A stretch of 38,200 nt of DNA, from positions 1 through 38,200 of IMG/VR virus record IMGVR_UViG_2703719355_000022. One strand, written 5' to 3'. The position numbers and the translations under genes were made by a program. The DNA comes from a virus (Duplodnaviria > Heunggongvirae > Uroviricota > Caudoviricetes). Within the stretch, counting starts at the first letter, position 1. Each line of letters opens with the position of its first letter. The notes under the pieces were generated by a model. The model worked only from the letters and a program-made list of their open reading frames with translations. It searched no databases and had not been told where the DNA came from. Of this stretch, positions 1,214 to 37,197 are shown one piece after another.

Positions 1214-1250
1214 GCCCCTATCGTTATAATACGCGGTAGGGGCGTTTTTG
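1214..1250 (+). terminator. putative rho-independent terminator (stem GCCCCTA/TAGGGGC then TTTTT)
   Basis: Inverted repeat 1214-1220 / 1237-1243 followed by T-run 1245-1249; the loop is large so strength is uncertain. Confidence 0.45.
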
Positions 1251-1262
1251 TTTGGAAATGGT

Positions 1263-2942
1263 ATGAAAACTAAACTGTATTCGTATATTCGCTTCTCTTC
1301 AATGAAGCAAGCGGATGGTAGTTCTTATGAACGCCAAAAGAGAACAGCCGCAGAGATAGCCGCAAAATATGACCTTGAACTGGTTACAAGCTATCAGGAT
1401 TTTGGTGTATCTGCATTCAAAGGGGCTAACAGTAGAACAGGTGCATTATCTCGTTTTCTGGATGAGATTGGTCGATCTATTCCGGTTGGTAGCTGGCTGG
1501 TTGTGGAAAACTTGGACCGTATCTCTCGCCAATCCATCATTGAAGCACAAGAGCTATTTCTCTCGATTATCCGTAGGGGAATAACTATCGTAACTGGCAT
1601 GGATGGTAAGGTCTATAGCAAGGAATCGGTTAATGCCAATCCTATTGATTTGCTATTGAGTGTCATGTTGTTTGCGAGAGCTAACGAGGAAAGCCAGACT
1701 AAGCGCAATCGTACTAACTCAAGCGCACTGATTAAGATTAAAGCTCATCAAGAAAATCCACAAAATCCGGCTGTTGCAATCGAGGAAATTGGAAAGAATA
1801 TGTGGTGGACTGATACCACTTCCGGTTATGTGTGTCCCGATCCGGTCTTCTTCCCTATTGTTCAGGAGGTTGTGGAATTACGCAGGAATGGACGGTCTAC
1901 CGCCGAGATACTGGATCACCTTAACGCGACATATACACCACCACCAGCCGCAAGTCACAAGAGGCATTCAAACTGGTCACGAGCAATGATTGAAAGGTTG
2001 TTCCATACCCGCGCTTTGATTGGTATCAAGGAAATCTCTGTAGATGGCGTTAAGTATGAGTTAAAGGATTATTACCCTCGTGTGCTAGATGACGCTGAGT
2101 TTTATCACCTTAAGAAAAGCATTGGTGTTAGAGCATGTAACTATGGAGACAAAGAAGAAGCTAAACCGATCCCCCTGCTTAGTGGTGTTAATCTGCTGAA
2201 ATGTGAACATTGCGGTTCCGCTATGGTTAAGGTGAAAGGAACTAACAAACGTCCTAACCAATATCGTTATTCATGCGATGCAATGCGCTCTAGTCGTATT
2301 GCATGTGTGCATACAAACTGGAGTTTTCGAGGTGATCAATTAGAGAAAGCTGTATTGCAATTGCTGGCTGATAAAATCTGGATTGCTGAGGATAAGGCTA
2401 ATCCGGTTCCGGCTTTGAAAGTACAGATTGATGAAATATCACGCAAGATTGATAACCTGATTACCCTTTCTGCTATGACAGGAGCAACGAAGGAGTTAGC
2501 CGACCAGATTACTACCCTCAATAGCGAGCGTGAAACACTCTACAATCAGATTAAGATGGCAGAAGAGGAAATGTATTCTGTGGACTCTCAAGGCTGGGAG
2601 AAGCTCGCAGAATTTGATTTAGAAGATGTTTATAACGAGGATCGCATTAAGGTCCGGTTTAAGATTAAGCAAGCTCTAAAACGGATCGGGTGTAGCAGGA
2701 TTGACAAATACAAAAACTTGTTTGTACTGGAATACATTGATGGTAAGACCCAGAGAGTTGTAATAGAAAATTCAAGAGGACCGAGGAAAGGCCGGATCTT
2801 CGTTGATTTGAAGACCATCAATGATAGGCAGATTCTGGAGAGTAACGGGCTTGTTTTGCATCCATGTTTAGACATGCTGACAGATAAGAACTGGAAACCA
2901 GAAGAGGAAATACCAGGTCCATTACAGGAATTTGGAATTTAA
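1263..2942 (+). CDS. large serine recombinase (integrase/resolvase family)
   Basis: N-terminal resolvase-type catalytic motif YSYIRFSSMKQ...RQ, about 560 aa, Cys-rich zinc-ribbon-like segment CEHCGS...YRYSCDAMRSSRIACVH, C-terminal coiled coil; first ATG at 1263 (track start at 1248 is TTG). Confidence 0.85.
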   Translation: MKTKLYSYIRFSSMKQADGSSYERQKRTAAEIAAKYDLELVTSYQDFGVSAFKGANSRTGALSRFLDEIGRSIPVGSWLVVENLDRISRQSIIEAQELFLSIIRRGITIVTGMDGKVYSKESVNANPIDLLLSVMLFARANEESQTKRNRTNSSALIKIKAHQENPQNPAVAIEEIGKNMWWTDTTSGYVCPDPVFFPIVQEVVELRRNGRSTAEILDHLNATYTPPPAASHKRHSNWSRAMIERLFHTRALIGIKEISVDGVKYELKDYYPRVLDDAEFYHLKKSIGVRACNYGDKEEAKPIPLLSGVNLLKCEHCGSAMVKVKGTNKRPNQYRYSCDAMRSSRIACVHTNWSFRGDQLEKAVLQLLADKIWIAEDKANPVPALKVQIDEISRKIDNLITLSAMTGATKELADQITTLNSERETLYNQIKMAEEEMYSVDSQGWEKLAEFDLEDVYNEDRIKVRFKIKQALKRIGCSRIDKYKNLFVLEYIDGKTQRVVIENSRGPRKGRIFVDLKTINDRQILESNGLVLHPCLDMLTDKNWKPEEEIPGPLQEFGI

Positions 2943-2978
2943 GCGGCCTAAATCGACGTATAACGAGCTAAAACAGTT

Positions 2979-3008
2979 AAGGGGTACAGATGTACCCCTT
3001 TTTAATTT
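2979..3008 (+). terminator. rho-independent terminator after the recombinase gene
   Basis: GGGGTAC-AGAT-GTACCCC hairpin followed by TTTTTAATTT. Confidence 0.65.
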
Positions 3009-3218
3009 AATTGCGTTAGGCAGCGTAAGCAAGTTTCATAGTAGTTTCCTCTAAAATAATAAGTTCACTACTATTTATCAGAGAAAATTGTCTTACTATT
3101 GCATTCTCTATCTGGATGTGGGTATAGGCGGGATTGAATACGGCAAAACTGAAACATTCCACTACTGCAATAAATCACTAAACAATATAAAGAATATTGC
3201 AAGTGTGGAGTGGAACTA

Positions 3219-4709
3219 ATGCAAGATATTAAAATTCATTTTCAAGATTACAGTTTCGTTAAGGTTGATTGCTCTCCTTCTATCGGAATGGAATTAAGAG
3301 ATTATTTCTCGTTTGAGGTTGAAGGGGCTAGGTTTAGCCCCCGTTACAAGTATTCTGGCTGGGATGGACGAATAAGACTGTTTACGCATGAAAACACCCT
3401 ACCAATTGGACTATTAAAAACGTTGGGTGTCTTTGTTAAAAATATGGGCTATTCAGTCTGGATTGACCCGCGATTGCTTGAGAAGGAAGATGTAACCAAA
3501 GACGCGATTAATGAATGGATTGATTCCCTAGAAGTGTATTCCGGTTCCAATAAAATCAATCCTTACTGGTATCAGCGTGAAGCAGTCTTTCTGGGTATTC
3601 ATAATCGCCGTAGAATGCTGGTTCTTCCTACCAGTGCCGGAAAGTCATTGATTGCTTGTATGCTGTCTCGCTGGTACTTAGAGCATTACACCGGAAAAAT
3701 TCTAATCATTGTTCCGACTACATCGCTAGTGGTTCAAATGAGGGATGATTTCATCGATTATAGGCTATTCCCTTATGAAGCAATTCATACAATGATGAGT
3801 GGTAGCGGGAAACATCCGGGAGATAGGCTAATCACTGTTTCAACATGGCAATCAGCTTGCAAGATGCCTCCTGAATGGTTCCGACAATATGGAATGTTGA
3901 TAGTTGATGAATCACATAAGGCTAGTGCCAAAAATATTACCAATATCATCAATGGAATGAATCATTGCCAGTTCAAAATCGGTATGACTGGTTCCCCGAA
4001 AGAATCAAAATGCCATTTAATGCAGTATGTCGGGCTTTTCGGTGATATTTCTAAGATCGTTAGCATTGACCGCCTGATGGAAGAAGGTCAAGTGACGAAA
4101 CTGAAAATCAACTGTCTTTTCCTTCGTTATACCGATGAGGAATGTAGCGCGGTTAAGGGTAGAGAATATGCGGAAGAGATCAAGTATATTACGTCTAACC
4201 CACGACGTAATAAGTTTGCTTGTAATTTGGCGCTAAAACTCGCTAAGAAGGGCGAAAACGTATTCCTGATGTTCCGCAATACTAAGCACGGAAAACTTAT
4301 GTATGATGCGTTACAGAAGGTACACGACAAGGTTTATTATATTGACGGTGGAGTTAAGACAGAAGAACGAGACGAGTTCAAAAAATTAGCGGAAGGGGAA
4401 ACAGGGATCATTTGCGTTGCATCCTATGGTGTGTTCTCTACTGGTGTTTCTATCAAGAACTTGCACCATGTTATTTTCGGGCATCCAGTTAAAGAATCAA
4501 CCATTGTTAGACAGAGTATCGGTCGTGCATTGCGCAAACATGGTTCTAAGGATATTGCTACCGTTTGGGATCTTATAGATCATCTGTGTATATTCGGTCG
4601 TAACGGAAAAATCAAGCATAAAAATTATGCGGTAAAACATGCACTTGAGAGAATCCGCTATTATTTGACCGACAAGTTCAGCTATGCAACTAAAACAATT
4701 GCTATATAA
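3219..4709 (+). CDS. uvsW: UvsW-like superfamily-2 DNA helicase
   Basis: N-terminus MQDIKIHFQDYSFVKVDCS...GWDGRIRL and motifs LVLPTSAGKS (Walker A-like), IVDESH (DExH), VASYGVFSTG, WDLIDH match my recollection of T4 UvsW along the whole length; ATG at 3219 with GGAG upstream. Confidence 0.85.
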   Translation: MQDIKIHFQDYSFVKVDCSPSIGMELRDYFSFEVEGARFSPRYKYSGWDGRIRLFTHENTLPIGLLKTLGVFVKNMGYSVWIDPRLLEKEDVTKDAINEWIDSLEVYSGSNKINPYWYQREAVFLGIHNRRRMLVLPTSAGKSLIACMLSRWYLEHYTGKILIIVPTTSLVVQMRDDFIDYRLFPYEAIHTMMSGSGKHPGDRLITVSTWQSACKMPPEWFRQYGMLIVDESHKASAKNITNIINGMNHCQFKIGMTGSPKESKCHLMQYVGLFGDISKIVSIDRLMEEGQVTKLKINCLFLRYTDEECSAVKGREYAEEIKYITSNPRRNKFACNLALKLAKKGENVFLMFRNTKHGKLMYDALQKVHDKVYYIDGGVKTEERDEFKKLAEGETGIICVASYGVFSTGVSIKNLHHVIFGHPVKESTIVRQSIGRALRKHGSKDIATVWDLIDHLCIFGRNGKIKHKNYAVKHALERIRYYLTDKFSYATKTIAI

Positions 4710-21919: not shown

Positions 21920-21949
21920 AGTTACCCCCTTTTATGGAGTATTTACATA

Positions 21950-26337: not shown

Positions 26338-28266
26338 TTAAAAGTTATTTACCCACCCACCACGACGCACAGGACGCGCCATAGGACGACGATTAGGTTT
26401 GTGATGAGTGATTGGCTTAGTTTCTTCGATTTGCTCGTTAGAATGTGATTTAGGAGCTTCTACGGTTGCTTCTGGTTCACGATTCAGCTTTTCTTTCATT
26501 GCAATGAGCTTATCCCATGACATTTTTGAAAGAACATAGCGAGAAGCCGCATAGCTATAAACCAGACAGTCGAGCGCCTCGTTTCGTGTCGCACCTGGAT
26601 TTTTTACCCAACGTGTTCCAGTAACAGTACGCTTGATGGATTCACTCAAAAGCTGATCGAGATAATCATCAGGAACGGTTTCTGATATCTCTAAACCAAT
26701 ATGAGGGTTTTCTTTCAAGTTGCGTGTTAATAGCTCACGAATAGCCGTTTTACCCACGTTAACGCCCAACATAAGCAACTCATGACCGCCCGTGGTAGTT
26801 GGTTTCACTGGAATGATTGGAGCAGTACCAGATGAACTACCTTTGATTGCGTGTAAGTTCTTCCACTTACCACCGCAAATACGGTATCCGGCTTGAGTGA
26901 ATCGACCGTTCGATGTATCAAGGAAGCTGGCGAGCATAGGAACACGATCACCCGATACAGTAGTAAATTTGGTTTTATGGAAGTTGATTAATCTGTCCCA
27001 TACAGGAGATTCATATCGTTCACAGTTATGGTCGTAAAAGCTGCGATGATCCAGAATATAAATCTTATCCTTTGCCACGCCCATGATCGTAGTTTCTGCG
27101 CGATCTAATTGCTGGTCAGTACCCGCACACAAGAAAATCACGTCATCAGGGATATTCTCGATAGAAACATCTGTTTTAAGTTCTTCCAGTTCGTTTACTT
27201 CTACTGCCGTTTCCTGATCATCGTATACAGTGCCGAGAACGGTATTATAAAAACTTTGTAAATCAAATGTTTGCCACGCTTGAGAGAAGTCAGAGACACA
27301 TGCTTTGATAGAGCTAAAAGGTGAATATAGACGGCTGATCCAGAATCCTGCTACATCACTTTCACGGGTAGCTCTCCATTCACCTTGTGCAACCGCTCTA
27401 ATGCGATCCCCTTCTGACCAATCAGTCTGGCAATGAGGACACACATAACGGGCGCTTTCAACACATGGCAGATTGCGACCATCCTGATTTTTCCACTCGA
27501 ACTTAACATTTTCCCACTCGATCACCTGGTGTTTCCCGCAATGCGGACAAGGAACAAAGAATTTACGCTGATCACTTGATAACCATTGTTGATTAATCGG
27601 TCCCAGCTTAGTGGTCGGGGTACTGGAAACGATAATTCTTGCTTCATCCCCGAAAGTGGTTGCGCGGTTAGCCGCAAGTGCAATCGGATCGCCCTCTTCA
27701 CTAGCACTGGCAGCATCACATTCATCGAGCAGAATCAACGGGCTGGTTTTTGAACGCAAGGTTGATGGGCTAGTAAGCGATACCATGTAAAGAAAATGAT
27801 TAGTCTTAAGCTGAATCTGACTATTGTTATTAACAGCGTTGCGATCATTCTTGTCGGTGATTGCTTCGCGTAATGCCGGACATGCTTCAATGGCTGGTCG
27901 GATCTTCCCGCTTAGGTACTGAGCGGTTTCCTTCGTGGTTGCTTGGCCTATGATGATATTGCTGGGATCGTTAGCTATCTTATTGAATAATATACCATTA
28001 AGGATGGAAGTTTTGCCGATCTGGGCACTTGTACAAAAAATGTACTTTTTCTTATTCTCTAAGAAAGGAGCATCAATCATGCCTTTCTGAAAGCTGGTTA
28101 ATTTAATTTTAGCGCCAGCTTGTGGTCCATCCACTAGGATCATGTTTTCCTCGCACCATTCAGATGGTAAACGCTTAATTGGCGGTCGGATATGTTTTGA
28201 TACTTCGTTAAAAATTCGCTTGAGTTTAAATTTATTTGAGAGTTTTTTCACCGTGATTATCCTCAT
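26338..28266 (-). CDS. terminase large subunit, lambda gpA family, 642 aa
   Basis: Motifs [29 protein letters not shown] and C-terminal RNEALDC recall lambda gpA; Walker A-like GKTS; first gene of the minus-strand operon. Confidence 0.9.
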
Positions 28267-28268
28267 AT

Positions 28269-28281
28269 CAACAATATGTTG
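28269..28281. promoter_or_regulatory. perfect palindrome CAACA-ATA-TGTTG in the 55-bp divergent intergenic region
   Basis: Inverted repeat between terminase start (28266) and the divergent plus-strand gene (28322); candidate operator. Confidence 0.3.
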
Positions 28282-28321
28282 TATTTAGATAAATACGGGT
28301 ATTAAGATTTAAGGGGGTTGT

Positions 28322-28924
28322 ATGCTAATTAATCAGCAACAAAGAGATGAATTAGAATTAGCCTTGTCTTGTACCGATCATGAATATCGTTTGCCAGTAA
28401 AACATAAGCACTTAAAGACTGATTACACAACATCCGGTTTTAGCCGTGAGGAAGCGAAAGAGATTTTAATAGAATTTTACCGTGATAATGGTTATACAGA
28501 CGTTCACAACTTCTTTAAGAAGCATAGAACATCACATACAGAGTTTCGGAGAGTCCGAGATTGGTTTGATTTTGATATCAAGCGTTATTATCGCATTGAT
28601 GACGGTCCTATCTATCGGTTGCAGTGGAAGCCGATCCGAGAAGTGTTGAAACAGAAGAGATTGAATCACGCAATTACACGCTATCGTAACGTGGCTTTCA
28701 AGAAAGGCTATGGTGATACAAGGGAACTATTCGTTGAACTAGCTAACGTGAAATATAGCCACTATTACAACGATCCTACAGGGTTCTTCGAAGTGCTTCG
28801 CAAGGTTGATATTAGTCGGGGTACATATTATTCACGGCTGAGGAAGTACGGGATTAAGGCAGAGTTCTTTATGTCGGTTGACGACTCACCCATGTTCAAG
28901 ATAAAATCTAAGTCCTCTAAATAA
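28322..28924 (+). CDS. hypothetical basic protein with two helix-turn-helix-like repeats, 200 aa
   Basis: AAGGGGG ribosome-binding motif; two internally similar segments (EILIEFYRDNGY...FRRVRDWF and ELFVELANVKY...YSRLRKYG); Arg/Lys/Tyr-rich. Confidence 0.4.
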   Translation: MLINQQQRDELELALSCTDHEYRLPVKHKHLKTDYTTSGFSREEAKEILIEFYRDNGYTDVHNFFKKHRTSHTEFRRVRDWFDFDIKRYYRIDDGPIYRLQWKPIREVLKQKRLNHAITRYRNVAFKKGYGDTRELFVELANVKYSHYYNDPTGFFEVLRKVDISRGTYYSRLRKYGIKAEFFMSVDDSPMFKIKSKSSK

Positions 28925-28959
28925 TATTGAGAAATCACTATTGTTTGGAGGAAACTACT

Positions 28960-29187
28960 ATGACTACTAAAGCTACTCGCGGTCGCCCTGCCCGTTTTAA
29001 CGCTGAACAGATGGCTGATATTGCCTACGCTTACTATACAGCGGATCGTGGTAAGGAAGCGAAAGAACAGATTCTTAGTGAACATGGGATCTCAATCGCC
29101 CAATTCTATAAGAATATGAAGAAGTTAGACATTAAATTCTATGTTCAGATCGGTGATGGTCAGATCGTAGAAGCAACAGGTTTTTGA
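28960..29187 (+). CDS. small DNA-binding protein with N-terminal GRP motif resembling small-terminase N-terminal domains, 75 aa
   Basis: GGAGG 7 nt upstream of ATG at 28960; N-terminus TRGRPARFNAEQMADI resembles the GRPxxYxPE start of some small-terminase DNA-binding domains; too short for a complete small terminase. Confidence 0.4.
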   Translation: MTTKATRGRPARFNAEQMADIAYAYYTADRGKEAKEQILSEHGISIAQFYKNMKKLDIKFYVQIGDGQIVEATGF

Positions 29188-29263
29188 TTCTCTTTGCCAC
29201 TCTTCGGAGTGGCTTTTTTGTATATAAAACAATCTGAGCAAAACTGCGCACATCTCCATATAC

Positions 29264-29291
29264 AAAAAGCCCCACCATTACGGCAGGGCTT
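29264..29291 (-). terminator. rho-independent terminator (same family) closing the minus-strand early operon
   Basis: AAGCCCTGCC-GTAATG-GTGGGGCTTTTT directly after the TGA at 29296. Confidence 0.6.
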
Positions 29292-29295
29292 CTAA

Positions 29296-32242: not shown

Positions 32243-32316
32243 ATCATCATGTTAAAATCCCTTCCTGAATGATTCGAAGCAGATTACTCGCGCCCCGCAG
32301 GGCGCATAATATCTTT

Positions 32317-32354
32317 GTAGGTATATTGGTTTGATGGTATGTAGGTATATTGGT
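32317..32354 (+). repeat. direct repeat GTAGGTATATTGGT x2 (24-bp period)
   Basis: Identical 14-mers at 32317-32330 and 32341-32354; preceded by palindrome GCGCCC-CGCA-GGGCGC at 32290-32305. Confidence 0.6.
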
Positions 32355-32408
32355 CTGTAGGTCTGGATCGCTTCTAAGCCCCGTCATTACTGGTTTCCCC
32401 ACTTTGAA

Positions 32409-32662
32409 ACGGGGACGGGAAAGAGACGGGGAAGGGATACCACGGGGACAGGTCGGGGATAACATGGGGATGATACGGGGACACCACGGGGAAAGCATTT
32501 AAAATCATATCCTTACATAAGAATACGCATCTAATACCGGGGATTTTACGCGGGGATGGCGGGGAAACTACCCTAATCCGGGGGATTTTGCTTCCAAAAC
32601 GGGGATGAACGCGGGGACGGTGACGGGGATACATCTTCTAAAGTGGGGATATCGCGGGGAAA
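32409..32662 (+). repeat. G-rich array of at least 16 same-orientation CGGGGA motifs, first seven largely phased at 11 bp
   Basis: GGGGA starts at 32411, 32428, 32444, 32455, 32466, 32477, 32488, 32539, 32552, 32561, 32581, 32601, 32613, 32625, 32645, 32656; flanked downstream by an AT-rich stretch. Confidence 0.8.
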
Positions 32663-32865: not shown

Positions 32866-32894
32866 TTGACTTCTGTCAAGGATTATTTTATACT
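32866..32894 (+). promoter_or_regulatory. sigma70-type promoter (TTGACT-17-TATACT) reading into the plus-strand early genes
   Basis: -35 at 32866-32871, -10 at 32889-32894; flanked by GTCAA/TTGAC half-sites at 32856-32879. Confidence 0.55.
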
Positions 32895-33029
32895 TTTTCT
32901 CGTTGGTAGGGGTTGAAATTTTCAAAACAGTCCCCATATAGATGATAAGCAAGATTTTCTCTCTACTAAATACATGTGAGAAATGATTGTTCACTTCTGA
33001 AAATCTCCTGATTCACTGTTAATTAATAC

Positions 33030-33058
33030 AGCACTGGTTAGATATACAGTGCTTTTTT
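33030..33058 (+). terminator. hairpin plus T-run (AGCACTG-N10-CAGTGCT-TTTTTT); terminator or attenuator
   Basis: 7-bp stem followed by six T; a similar hairpin CCACTG-N11-CAGTGG-TTTT at 33117-33145. Confidence 0.5.
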
Positions 33059-33236
33059 GGTTGAATAATGTACGAATTGATTAATTATTAATCTTCTCTT
33101 TAGCAATTCGTGCTCCCACTGATCGGATATACAGTGGTTTTACAGGGTTTTCTGAAATGACTTTTATAAATAGAAGTATCAAGGGCGAAAAGCTCTTTTT
33201 ATGAGAAAAAATAATCCACATTGTAGAGGATGTAAC

Positions 33237-33419
33237 ATGGCCAGAACTGTTAAATTTACTCGCGAGATTATGTTAGAGAAAGCAAAACGCTACTTTGAAC
33301 TGACGCCGGGAGTGAGGATTGAAGAGTGGTTTAAAAATGAAGGCATCGATAAATCAACCTTCCATAAACTCTTAAAGAAATATGAAATCAAGGTGAAGAT
33401 TGAAGCTACCGTTTGGTAA
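33237..33419 (+). CDS. hypothetical small protein, 60 aa
   Basis: ATG at 33237 with GAGGA upstream (track start 33201 has no ribosome-binding motif); basic helical protein. Confidence 0.4.
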   Translation: MARTVKFTREIMLEKAKRYFELTPGVRIEEWFKNEGIDKSTFHKLLKKYEIKVKIEATVW

Positions 33420-36278: not shown

Positions 36279-36836
36279 TTACGACACATCAAATTCATCG
36301 TCTTCTTGTTCTTCTTCCGGTTCTTCCTGCTTCACTTCCTCATCTTCTGAGTATTCATCGTAGGCATCAAGATCCGGTGAAATCATAATATCCCCGATCT
36401 CATTCAAACGAGCGGAAATGATATCCTTCAATGTTTCTTTCAAAGTACGCTGATCCGTTGCAGCTTCCATAATTTTTAGAGTGTCTACCGTCGCCATCTG
36501 CATCATGGTCTGGCGTACATCACCACAAAATCCGGCTAGAACTGTTTCTACATAACCTACAGGAATCAGATCATTTAGTTCGGTGCGGTTCTTAAGTTCG
36601 ATGGCGTCCGCCTCCCCTCTCGCCTTTCTTAATCGTTCTTGTTGGATCTGCGCTTGTACATCAACTTCCCTAAGTGGGCTGATTATGTTTTCAATTACCC
36701 AGGTGATTGCTCTATCCCGTGGACAACGGCGGGTATTCGTATTATACGGAAGACCACGATCACGCCATTTCTGAACAGCCGGAAGGGAATACCCATACAT
36801 TTTAGATAATTCGGTTAAAGTTACTTCTTGCGTCAT
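36279..36836 (-). CDS. terminase small subunit, lambda Nu1-like, 185 aa
   Basis: N-terminal TLTELSKMYGYSLPAVQKWRDRGLPY and central ARGEADAIELKNR...YVETVLAGFCGDV match my recollection of lambda Nu1; ATG at 36836 with AGAGGA upstream; acidic C-terminus. Confidence 0.7.
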   Translation of the reverse strand: MTQEVTLTELSKMYGYSLPAVQKWRDRGLPYNTNTRRCPRDRAITWVIENIISPLREVDVQAQIQQERLRKARGEADAIELKNRTELNDLIPVGYVETVLAGFCGDVRQTMMQMATVDTLKIMEAATDQRTLKETLKDIISARLNEIGDIMISPDLDAYDEYSEDEEVKQEEPEEEQEDDEFDVS

Positions 36837-37169
36837 GAAACTATCCTCTGAGCTAAAAATATGCGTAATTGTATTTAGACGAAATACGCAATATAACGGC
36901 CTATAACGCAATTTAAGAAAATCCCATGTGACGGGGCGTTGAGAAGTGATTTAGCTCGTTGTAGGGCTTGTTTGGTGGCTTAACTAAACCAATTTGAAAA
37001 AGGCACAAGCGAGATTTAAACCGCGCCGGGCAAAACACGCCCTCTTTTACCACTTATCACAGCACCTTTCTGTTGTCAAGTCTTTTTTATCGAATATTTT
37101 AAATTTTTTCATCTTTTTTCTCGTGCATTCATCCGTTTTTTTCTCGGTCAAAATCAATGACTTGACCCG

Positions 37170-37197
37170 TTGACACTGATCCGGTCATCAATATAAT
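37170..37197 (+). promoter_or_regulatory. consensus sigma70 promoter (TTGACA-16-TATAAT) upstream of the lipoprotein gene
   Basis: -35 at 37170-37175, -10 at 37192-37197; GGAGG ribosome-binding motif before ATG at 37314. Confidence 0.6.

Follow-up and report, generated by a model that had tools for sequence, protein, structure and literature searches.

The stretch studied here, positions 1 to 38,200 of the IMG/VR virus record IMGVR_UViG_2703719355_000022 (hereafter the window, i.e., this whole stretch of 38,200 nucleotides), constitutes most of a ~40-kb Escherichia coli prophage, and the analysis was centered on the spacer that separates its large terminase gene, terL, from a divergent pair of small genes, ORF-A and ORF-B (ORF, open reading frame). 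A near-identical copy of the prophage, integrated into hicB and encoding a large serine recombinase, is found in E. coli strain RMDEC332 (NZ_CM177021.1). Besides tail and lysis genes, the minus-strand block 4742–28251 contains terL and genes for a lambda-type portal and a protease-capsid fusion, terL (26338–28251, minus strand) being the first gene of this 22-kb head-tail-lysis block. Its product is a GpA-family large terminase with the Pfam domains GpA_ATPase and GpA_nuclease (PF05876, 2.1e-59; PF20454, 3.8e-45; phrog_15, 8.9e-142). On the opposite strand, ORF-A (28322–28924, 200 aa, isoelectric point (pI) 9.6) is followed by ORF-B (28960–29187, 75 aa, pI 9.0), itself preceded by a GGAGG ribosome-binding site at 28947–28951, which confirms the basic 200-aa protein and the 75-aa protein called originally. 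The ORF-A/B region was found in 54 of 5426 complete E. coli genomes, related prophages occur in E. coli, Salmonella and Proteus, and the spacer was compared over 42 related loci comprising 26 distinct spacers. ORF-A occupies one constant position in every related locus, and its divergent layout with terL is invariant, Proteus included. The conserved divergent arrangement pointed out by the original prediction is real, while the cis element (a palindrome, discussed below) and the start codon selected at that time were wrongly chosen.

The terminase gene of that prediction was correct, but its ATG (28264–28266), and with it a spacer of 55 bp, could not be retained: this ATG belongs to the conserved CCTCAT ribosome-binding region, within which lies the GAGGA ribosome-binding site of terL (28260–28264, minus strand). 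The true start of terL is the GTG at 28249–28251, since the N-termini of homologues (MKLISNK...) align with VKKLSNK, in agreement with the PGAP call. Besides, a ATGAGGGTAAT/ATGAGGATAAT block is kept 8–11 nt ahead of the terL start in all relatives. With the start at this GTG, the spacer to ORF-A amounts to 70 bp (28252–28321).

A scan located an intrinsic terminator of the A-B transcript at 29196–29219 (plus strand; −13 kcal/mol, z-score −5.7), whose stem sequence differs among relatives with the pairing being retained. A convergent intrinsic terminator of the upstream minus-strand genes (those of Rha and of a 214-aa ORF), located at 29262–29293 (minus strand; −18.4 kcal/mol, z-score −3.85, followed by UUUUU), cuts terL off from upstream transcription. 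As these terminators flank the A-B unit, a start signal for terL is needed between 28252 and ~29190, and they argue for terL transcription starting in the spacer and not far upstream. As anticipated by the original prediction, a scan of the spacer yielded no good sigma70 promoter for terL; none conserved among relatives was present either. A candidate sigma70 promoter for ORF-A (TTGAGA-16-TATCCT, 28236–28263) was rejected, being inside terL and unconserved in relatives.

TAAATA boxes in the spacer and along the genome

The spacer contains two divergent boxes with a TAAATA core, which are putative promoter elements. The terL-side box, CTAAATA (28282–28288, minus strand), is the putative core of the terL promoter and lies 30 nt ahead of the GTG; it is present in 42/42 loci, its distance to the terL start being 29–31 nt in 41 and 18 nt in one. 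The ORF-A-side box, ATAAATA (28289–28295, plus strand), is the putative promoter core of the A-B operon and lies 26 nt ahead of the ORF-A ATG. This box is also found in all 42 loci, at 24–27 nt from the ATG in 39 and at 15–18 nt in three, two of which are start-mapping uncertainties. Whereas the distance from each box to its gene is nearly constant, the gap between the two boxes is free, with values of 0, 2, 20–21, 28 or 36 bp across loci, which points to two independent divergent signals and not to one dyad operator. In the window lineage, the boxes are 2 bp apart and are therefore read together as a palindrome, GTATTTA-GA-TAAATAC (28281–28296, a 7-2-7 dyad); the boxes of some Salmonella relatives overlap to give ATATTTATAAATAT, reading TATAAATA on both strands. 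Over the 38 kb, the pattern GTATTT-N0-6-AAATAC was found at two sites, one ahead of terL and one ahead of the small terminase gene terS, for 0.02 occurrences expected, and none of 300 shuffles reached two. Just downstream of the ORF-A box, another dyad, AATAC-GG-GTATT (28292–28303, plus strand), is kept across ORF-A alleles of 45–100% identity; it is swapped for AATAT-TG-ATATT in loci L010 and L011 and lost in L004 and L008. This dyad is possibly an autoregulatory site or a leader element.

Hexamers were then counted in the non-coding DNA ahead of 30 genes, taken in the sense orientation. TAAATA ranked first of all hexamers, above the Shine-Dalgarno hexamers, with 16 copies distributed over 15 of the 30 regions, against 0.94 expected from its genome frequency and 3 copies in the antisense orientation. 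In dinucleotide shuffles of the upstream regions, the mean was 3.4 copies (standard deviation 1.8) and the maximum 11 in 2000 shuffles. The same hexamer came first in 10 of 11 relatives, for which independent crude gene calls were used and among which are the diverged Proteus and Salmonella prophages, and was seventh in L041. Boxes, of the general form (A/C/T)TAAATA, are located 20–70 nt ahead of the starts of terS, terL, ORF-A, the Rha gene and a third small gene, ORF-C, and also ahead of several genes of tail and lysis functions and of the genes that come next after terL and after the capsid gene; those at 21940 and 26302 come after hairpins that follow the capsid and terL genes, respectively. 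Inside genes, TAAATA was found only once in antisense, for 13.0 ± 3.4 occurrences expected from dinucleotide shuffles that ignore codon structure, a scarcity that agrees with selection against antisense initiation.

The box of terS (CTAAATA, 36872–36878) lies 35 nt upstream of the gene, within GTATTTC-GTC-TAAATAC, and is flanked by TGCGTA/TACGCA inverted repeats. In the window (36840–36930) as in L018, L026 and L008, the terS box was found inside TGCGTA(A)...(T)TACGCA repeats, the arms of which extend up to 9 bp in relatives (TTTGCGTAA-N15-TTACGCAAA), and further GCGT repeats are present upstream. Speculatively, TerS could bind the flanking repeats, as in a cosB-like region, or these repeats could form an operator for autoregulation.

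Some boxes form a sub-class, with TTCTC(G/T)-N1-3 ahead of the box and usually, one base downstream, TAGTG or a closely similar motif. Such sites are located at 3072 (minus), 31908 (minus), 32966 (plus) and 36262 (minus) in the window, and at 7830 in L004, 8779 in L005, 8827 in L010 and 13058 in L018. This sub-class fronts putative early/regulatory units, which suggests two box classes. As for sigma70-type promoters, the best ones in the examined regions are at 32866–32894 and 37170–37197, both on the plus strand. The former (TTGACT-17-TATACT) is directed at the ORF-C leader and may give rise to a short transcript that stops at the terminator of 33058. The latter, a perfect TTGACA-16-TATAAT, stands ahead of the gene of a 190-aa lipoprotein (weak Cor-like match), which is probably expressed from the prophage.

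The ORF-A, ORF-B and ORF-C proteins

The ORF-A protein consists of a conserved N-terminal helix and two tandem repeats, each with three helices and a beta-hairpin according to the AF2 model (predicted local distance difference test, pLDDT, 76). The two halves are homologous (hhalign E 1.6e-5) and the model shows an identical order of helices and strands, so that the tandem repeats announced for this protein are confirmed, their helix-turn-helix (HTH)-like fold being predicted. Its 42 homologue clusters all come from E. coli, Salmonella and Proteus prophages and are all annotated as “hypothetical.” ORF-B comprises an RGRP arm, a predicted three-helix HTH and a predicted beta-hairpin (AF2 pLDDT 80) and matches repeat 1 of ORF-A (hhalign 94%, E 1e-7), of which it is a single-unit paralogue. 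Its alignment has a mean column identity of 79%, with the RGRP and the third helix ISIAQFYK, the putative recognition helix, being invariant; hence, B would be expected to recognize a sequence shared by all these phages. The GRP motif that had been taken as small-terminase-like is thus real, but it is not a small-terminase signature and precedes a predicted three-helix HTH.

A third member, ORF-C (33237–33419, plus strand, 60 aa, MARTVKFTRE...), matches B (hhalign 98%, E 5e-14) and A (95%) and has an arm of the form (A/G)(R/K)P, while no such arm is present in the ORF-A repeats. ORF-C heads a plus-strand operon with two ORFs of 337 and 333 aa. Its leader contains an ATAAATA box (33166–33172) followed, within ~10 nt, by a hairpin and U-tract (33181–33200), both kept in relatives, where compensatory changes are observed in the stem (AGAGC/GCTCT, GAGCG/CGCTC and AGGGC/GCCCT). 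A terminator so close to the putative promoter suggests that the operon is controlled by attenuation or antitermination. Two further hairpins lie upstream of the leader, at 33025–33058 and 33117–33141.

The best fold matches of the A and B models were DNA-bound HTH domains, namely those of Myb, CENP-B, Hin, Tc3, SpoIIID and sigma region 4, which agrees with the DNA-binding character expected of both proteins from the start, binding itself being putative and the matches generic to the HTH fold. Tri-helical HTH domains of the Hin/resolvase and Tc3/CENP-B/Myb types are among the closest known systems to A, B and C. In particular, the Hin DNA-binding domain has a GRP arm ahead of its three-helix HTH, as does ORF-B, in which a basic minor-groove arm of GRP type precedes helix 1 in the manner of Hin and homeodomains. 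At the sequence level, the comparison of the A and B profiles with PDB sequences returned only noise. A hidden Markov model of ORF-B searched against 1.84 billion representative proteins retrieved one close cluster, one distant relative of 71 aa and a LysM false positive. The contig of this distant relative (L048) also has ORF-A-like and ORF-C-like genes, i.e., the A-B-C trio recurs, and its ORF-C-like gene is preceded by CTAAATAC and a hairpin (2975–3025). In the same contig, the ORF-A-like gene is preceded by six repeats of the TC(A/G)GATGC(C/T)A type (1–200), with no terL there, and two AP2/HNH-like homing-endonuclease genes lie between the B-like and C-like genes.

We infer that the A, B and C proteins recognize specific DNA sequences and regulate the set of putative box promoters; A/B would probably control DNA transactions of the phage, transcription being the most likely one, and may act as late-gene activator. 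The A-B unit was also considered as a moron, an option that was rejected given the presence of ORF-A in every related locus and a G+C content of 0.40, compared with 0.416 for the window.

Reading of the TAAATA boxes

A sigma70 promoter needs a T at position −7. The box has an A at the equivalent position and no −35 partner, and its interpretation as a sigma70 −10 element shifted by two (AATANT) was discarded, the T being at the required position in just 41% of sites. The T4 late promoter, for its part, has no −35 element and consists of an 8-bp TATA box that precedes the start by roughly one turn of the helix (PMC2988020). The prophage box has the same TAAATA core as the T4 late promoters (TATAAATA), which are read by gp55 with gp33 and the gp45 clamp, and it reads TATAAATA in many relatives; like them, the boxes have no −35 element and stand ahead of many genes, on either strand, 20–40 nt before start codons. 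In contrast to T4, they belong to a temperate, siphovirus-like prophage of ~40 kb, they also front apparent early units and regulator genes, and the base preceding TAAATA varies (A, C or T). Because the box lacks both the −7 T and a −35 element and resembles a T4 late promoter, initiation would probably occur through a phage-made factor or a modified polymerase.

According to this reading, the phage family would place the box ahead of most of its transcription units. At the spacer, the terL-side box would start the head-tail-lysis operon while the ORF-A-side box would drive the short A-B operon ending at its own terminator, the two boxes being so close in this lineage that RNA polymerase would probably engage in just one of the two directions at any moment, and A/B would act at or beside them. 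We give an even chance to the combined model of a compact divergent promoter region with A/B as phage-specific DNA-binding regulators. Going further, the orphan A/B/C family, or one of its members, could be a new promoter-specificity or polymerase-redirecting factor by which the host RNA polymerase would initiate at the TAAATA boxes, from which most of the genome would be expressed, with the abutting boxes switching between production of the factor and of virions, which we regard as unlikely.

Several observations weigh against the promoter model and the role assigned to A, B and C. No gp55 homologue was found: a tblastn search of the window with T4 gp55 gave a best E value of 9 and the hhalign comparison of the ORF-A profile with gp55 gave 0.1%, as a consequence of which ORF-A was rejected as a gp55-like sigma factor. 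Pfam and PHROG scans, which covered ~35 ORFs of the window, returned no sigma-type match. For the near-identical RMDEC332 prophage, PGAP annotates neither a gp33 nor a gp45 clamp gene, two proteins for which no direct comparison was made. One box type fronts putative early units, regulator genes and late genes alike, so that A, B and C are not easily the sole factor reading it, and ORF-B is missing from two Salmonella relatives. The shuffle control of coding regions takes no account of codon structure. Finally, the box could instead be a signal acting at the RNA level or recognized by a nucleoid protein.

Other phage regulators provide partial analogies for A and B. T4 DsbA is a ~10-kDa double-stranded-DNA-binding protein reported to have A/T-rich sites that overlap late promoters (PMC2988020). 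It can be seen as a functional analogy for ORF-B (8.5 kDa, basic, with an AT-hook-like RGRP arm), by description and not by sequence or fold; DsbA is encoded beside late-transcription genes, is non-essential and binds with low affinity. Among late-gene activators, RinA is presented in PMC3152322 as a late-operon activator encoded just upstream of the terminase genes. The RinA/ArpU/Ltr systems of Gram-positive phages, Mu C and P2 Ogr share with A/B the presence of a small DNA-binding regulator heading the packaging/morphogenesis operon and a promoter without normal sigma70 signature. However, those activators are encoded co-directionally whereas A/B are divergent from terL, and the terL box overlaps the promoter core instead of an upstream activator position. 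No Pfam/PHROG match of A or B to RinA/ArpU, Mu C/Mor, P2 Ogr or lambda Q was obtained at E ≤ 0.1.

Alternative roles of the locus

The original prediction had designated the palindrome CAACA-ATA-TGTTG as an operator by which A or B would control the late operon. This perfect 5-3-5 dyad (CAACAATATGTTG, exact match at 28269–28281) does exist between terL and ORF-A; yet it falls within the predicted terL 5′ leader, past the conserved box, and its symmetry is at chance level, since an equivalent palindrome (5-bp arms, 0–6 nt loop) is present in 51% of dinucleotide shuffles of the spacer. Likewise, a 2-mismatch search of the window returned a count at expectation. Only 3 of the 42 related loci have it (the window and its two nearest relatives, L001 and L031), the 39 others reading CTTCATATTTCGT at this position. 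The palindrome is thus a chance-level, lineage-specific feature and its role as an operator is extremely improbable. As RNA, it could join a leader fold covering the terL ribosome-binding site; a hairpin formed by the palindrome itself does fold but is unconserved, and a start ~7 nt past the box would probably cut through it. A control exerted on the spacer could also be that of lysogeny, A/B being lysogeny-phase genes (immunity repressor or exclusion) transcribed away from the late operon, which one of the two proteins would keep shut by binding the dyads that overlap the terL box. Indeed, the A-B unit runs counter to the lytic genes on either side of it and ends at a terminator of its own, no CI/Cro-like repressor was detected among the ORFs scanned, and the dyads overlap the box cores. 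ORF-A also displays an allelic diversity (40–98% identity) like that of immunity proteins, and the divergent allele of L010/L011 comes with the different dyad replacing AATAC-GG-GTATT. Against such a role, the ORF-A promoter has the non-sigma70 box common to late genes and no sigma70 promoter, AATACGGGTATT is retained across ORF-A alleles only 45–56% identical, and an inter-box gap ranging from 0 to 36 bp leaves no single conserved operator geometry. Overall, a lysogeny function seems rather unlikely, without being far-fetched.

Roles away from transcription were considered as well. The small and large subunit genes of lambda-type terminases are normally adjacent, and ORF-B had been described as small-terminase-like. 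This did not survive comparison: A and B have no TerS match in Pfam, PHROG or NCBIfam, ORF-B is divergent from terL and its AF2 model lacks an oligomerisation domain. Moreover, a Nu1-like small terminase is encoded by terS (36279–36836, minus strand; phrog_57, 5.5e-18; weak PF07471 match; PGAP name), 8 kb from terL with oppositely oriented operons in between, so ORF-B is not the small terminase. With terS so distant, a local DNA-binding helper is conceivable, and A/B could be packaging cofactors that bind near terL, at a cos/pac accessory site, and aid the terminase. The invariance of the terL/ORF-A arrangement in all relatives, one Proteus prophage included, speaks for it. Lambda Nu1, an HTH protein associated with a GpA terminase, is among the known systems closest to A/B, which have neither a Nu1 profile match nor an oligomerisation region. 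Such cofactors become less likely, however, because A/B alleles assort independently of those of terL and terS (as do the C alleles) and the third paralogue heads an unrelated operon; besides, no terminase profile matches A or B, and the Nu1-like TerS exists, with the possibly cosB-like GCGT/ACGC repeats being upstream of its own gene. We hold this packaging role to be improbable. The same applies, to a similar degree, to the participation of A, B or C in another DNA transaction, be it as the directionality factor of the serine integrase or as a replication/partition protein acting on GGGGA iterons. A serine recombinase is present with no directionality factor identified, and small basic HTH proteins can act as such factors. 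Furthermore, ORF-C is preceded, at a distance of 600 bp, by a GGGGA array with 11-bp periodicity, and in L048 the ORF-A-like gene comes immediately after an iteron array of another kind. But nothing ties A, B or C to GGGGA or integrase sites, the spacer beside ORF-A has no GGGGA repeats, and serine-integrase directionality factors usually work via the integrase and not via DNA.

The GGGGA array itself spans 32380–32660, with ~17 repeats (ACGGGGA, CGCGGGGA and ATGGGGA) that are partly 11-bp periodic, within a 1.4-kb non-coding stretch extending from minus-strand regulatory genes to the ORF-C operon. It looks like a set of iterons (origin, partition or other protein-binding array), and the ORFs called at 32247–32498 and 32374–32634 are probably spurious. 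At the other end of the window, recombinase and UvsW-like helicase genes are adjacent (1248–4709). In the RMDEC332 prophage (L003, 6687–11829), two extra genes, of 391 and 185 aa, lie between them, and IS911 adjoins the recombinase gene.

Searches of GenBank phages revealed no DNA similar to the 5-kb region around the spacer and, by tblastn, no encoded ORF-A relative, i.e., no cultured phage with either was retrieved. An ORF-A relative was not found in a scan of GTDB species representatives, the Rfam scan of the window returned no family, and no literature on this prophage type was found. The nearest cultured TerL, with 45% identity, is that of Escherichia phage DCP80 (L047, PQ671644.1, 1–9611). 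The DCP80 record, of 141 kb and classed as a T4-like Gaprivervirus, has at its beginning a module of GpA terminase, portal and capsid genes; it looks chimeric, possibly through misassembly, and was left out of the analysis.

There is nothing unusual in a pair of regulator genes lying divergent to a phage late operon. In this locus, the pair belongs to a predicted three-gene orphan family of DNA-binding proteins with almost no relatives among 1.8 billion representative proteins, and the prophage group, which is without the T4 recognition protein, appears to use on most of its transcription units a promoter box of its own that is close to the T4 late promoter.

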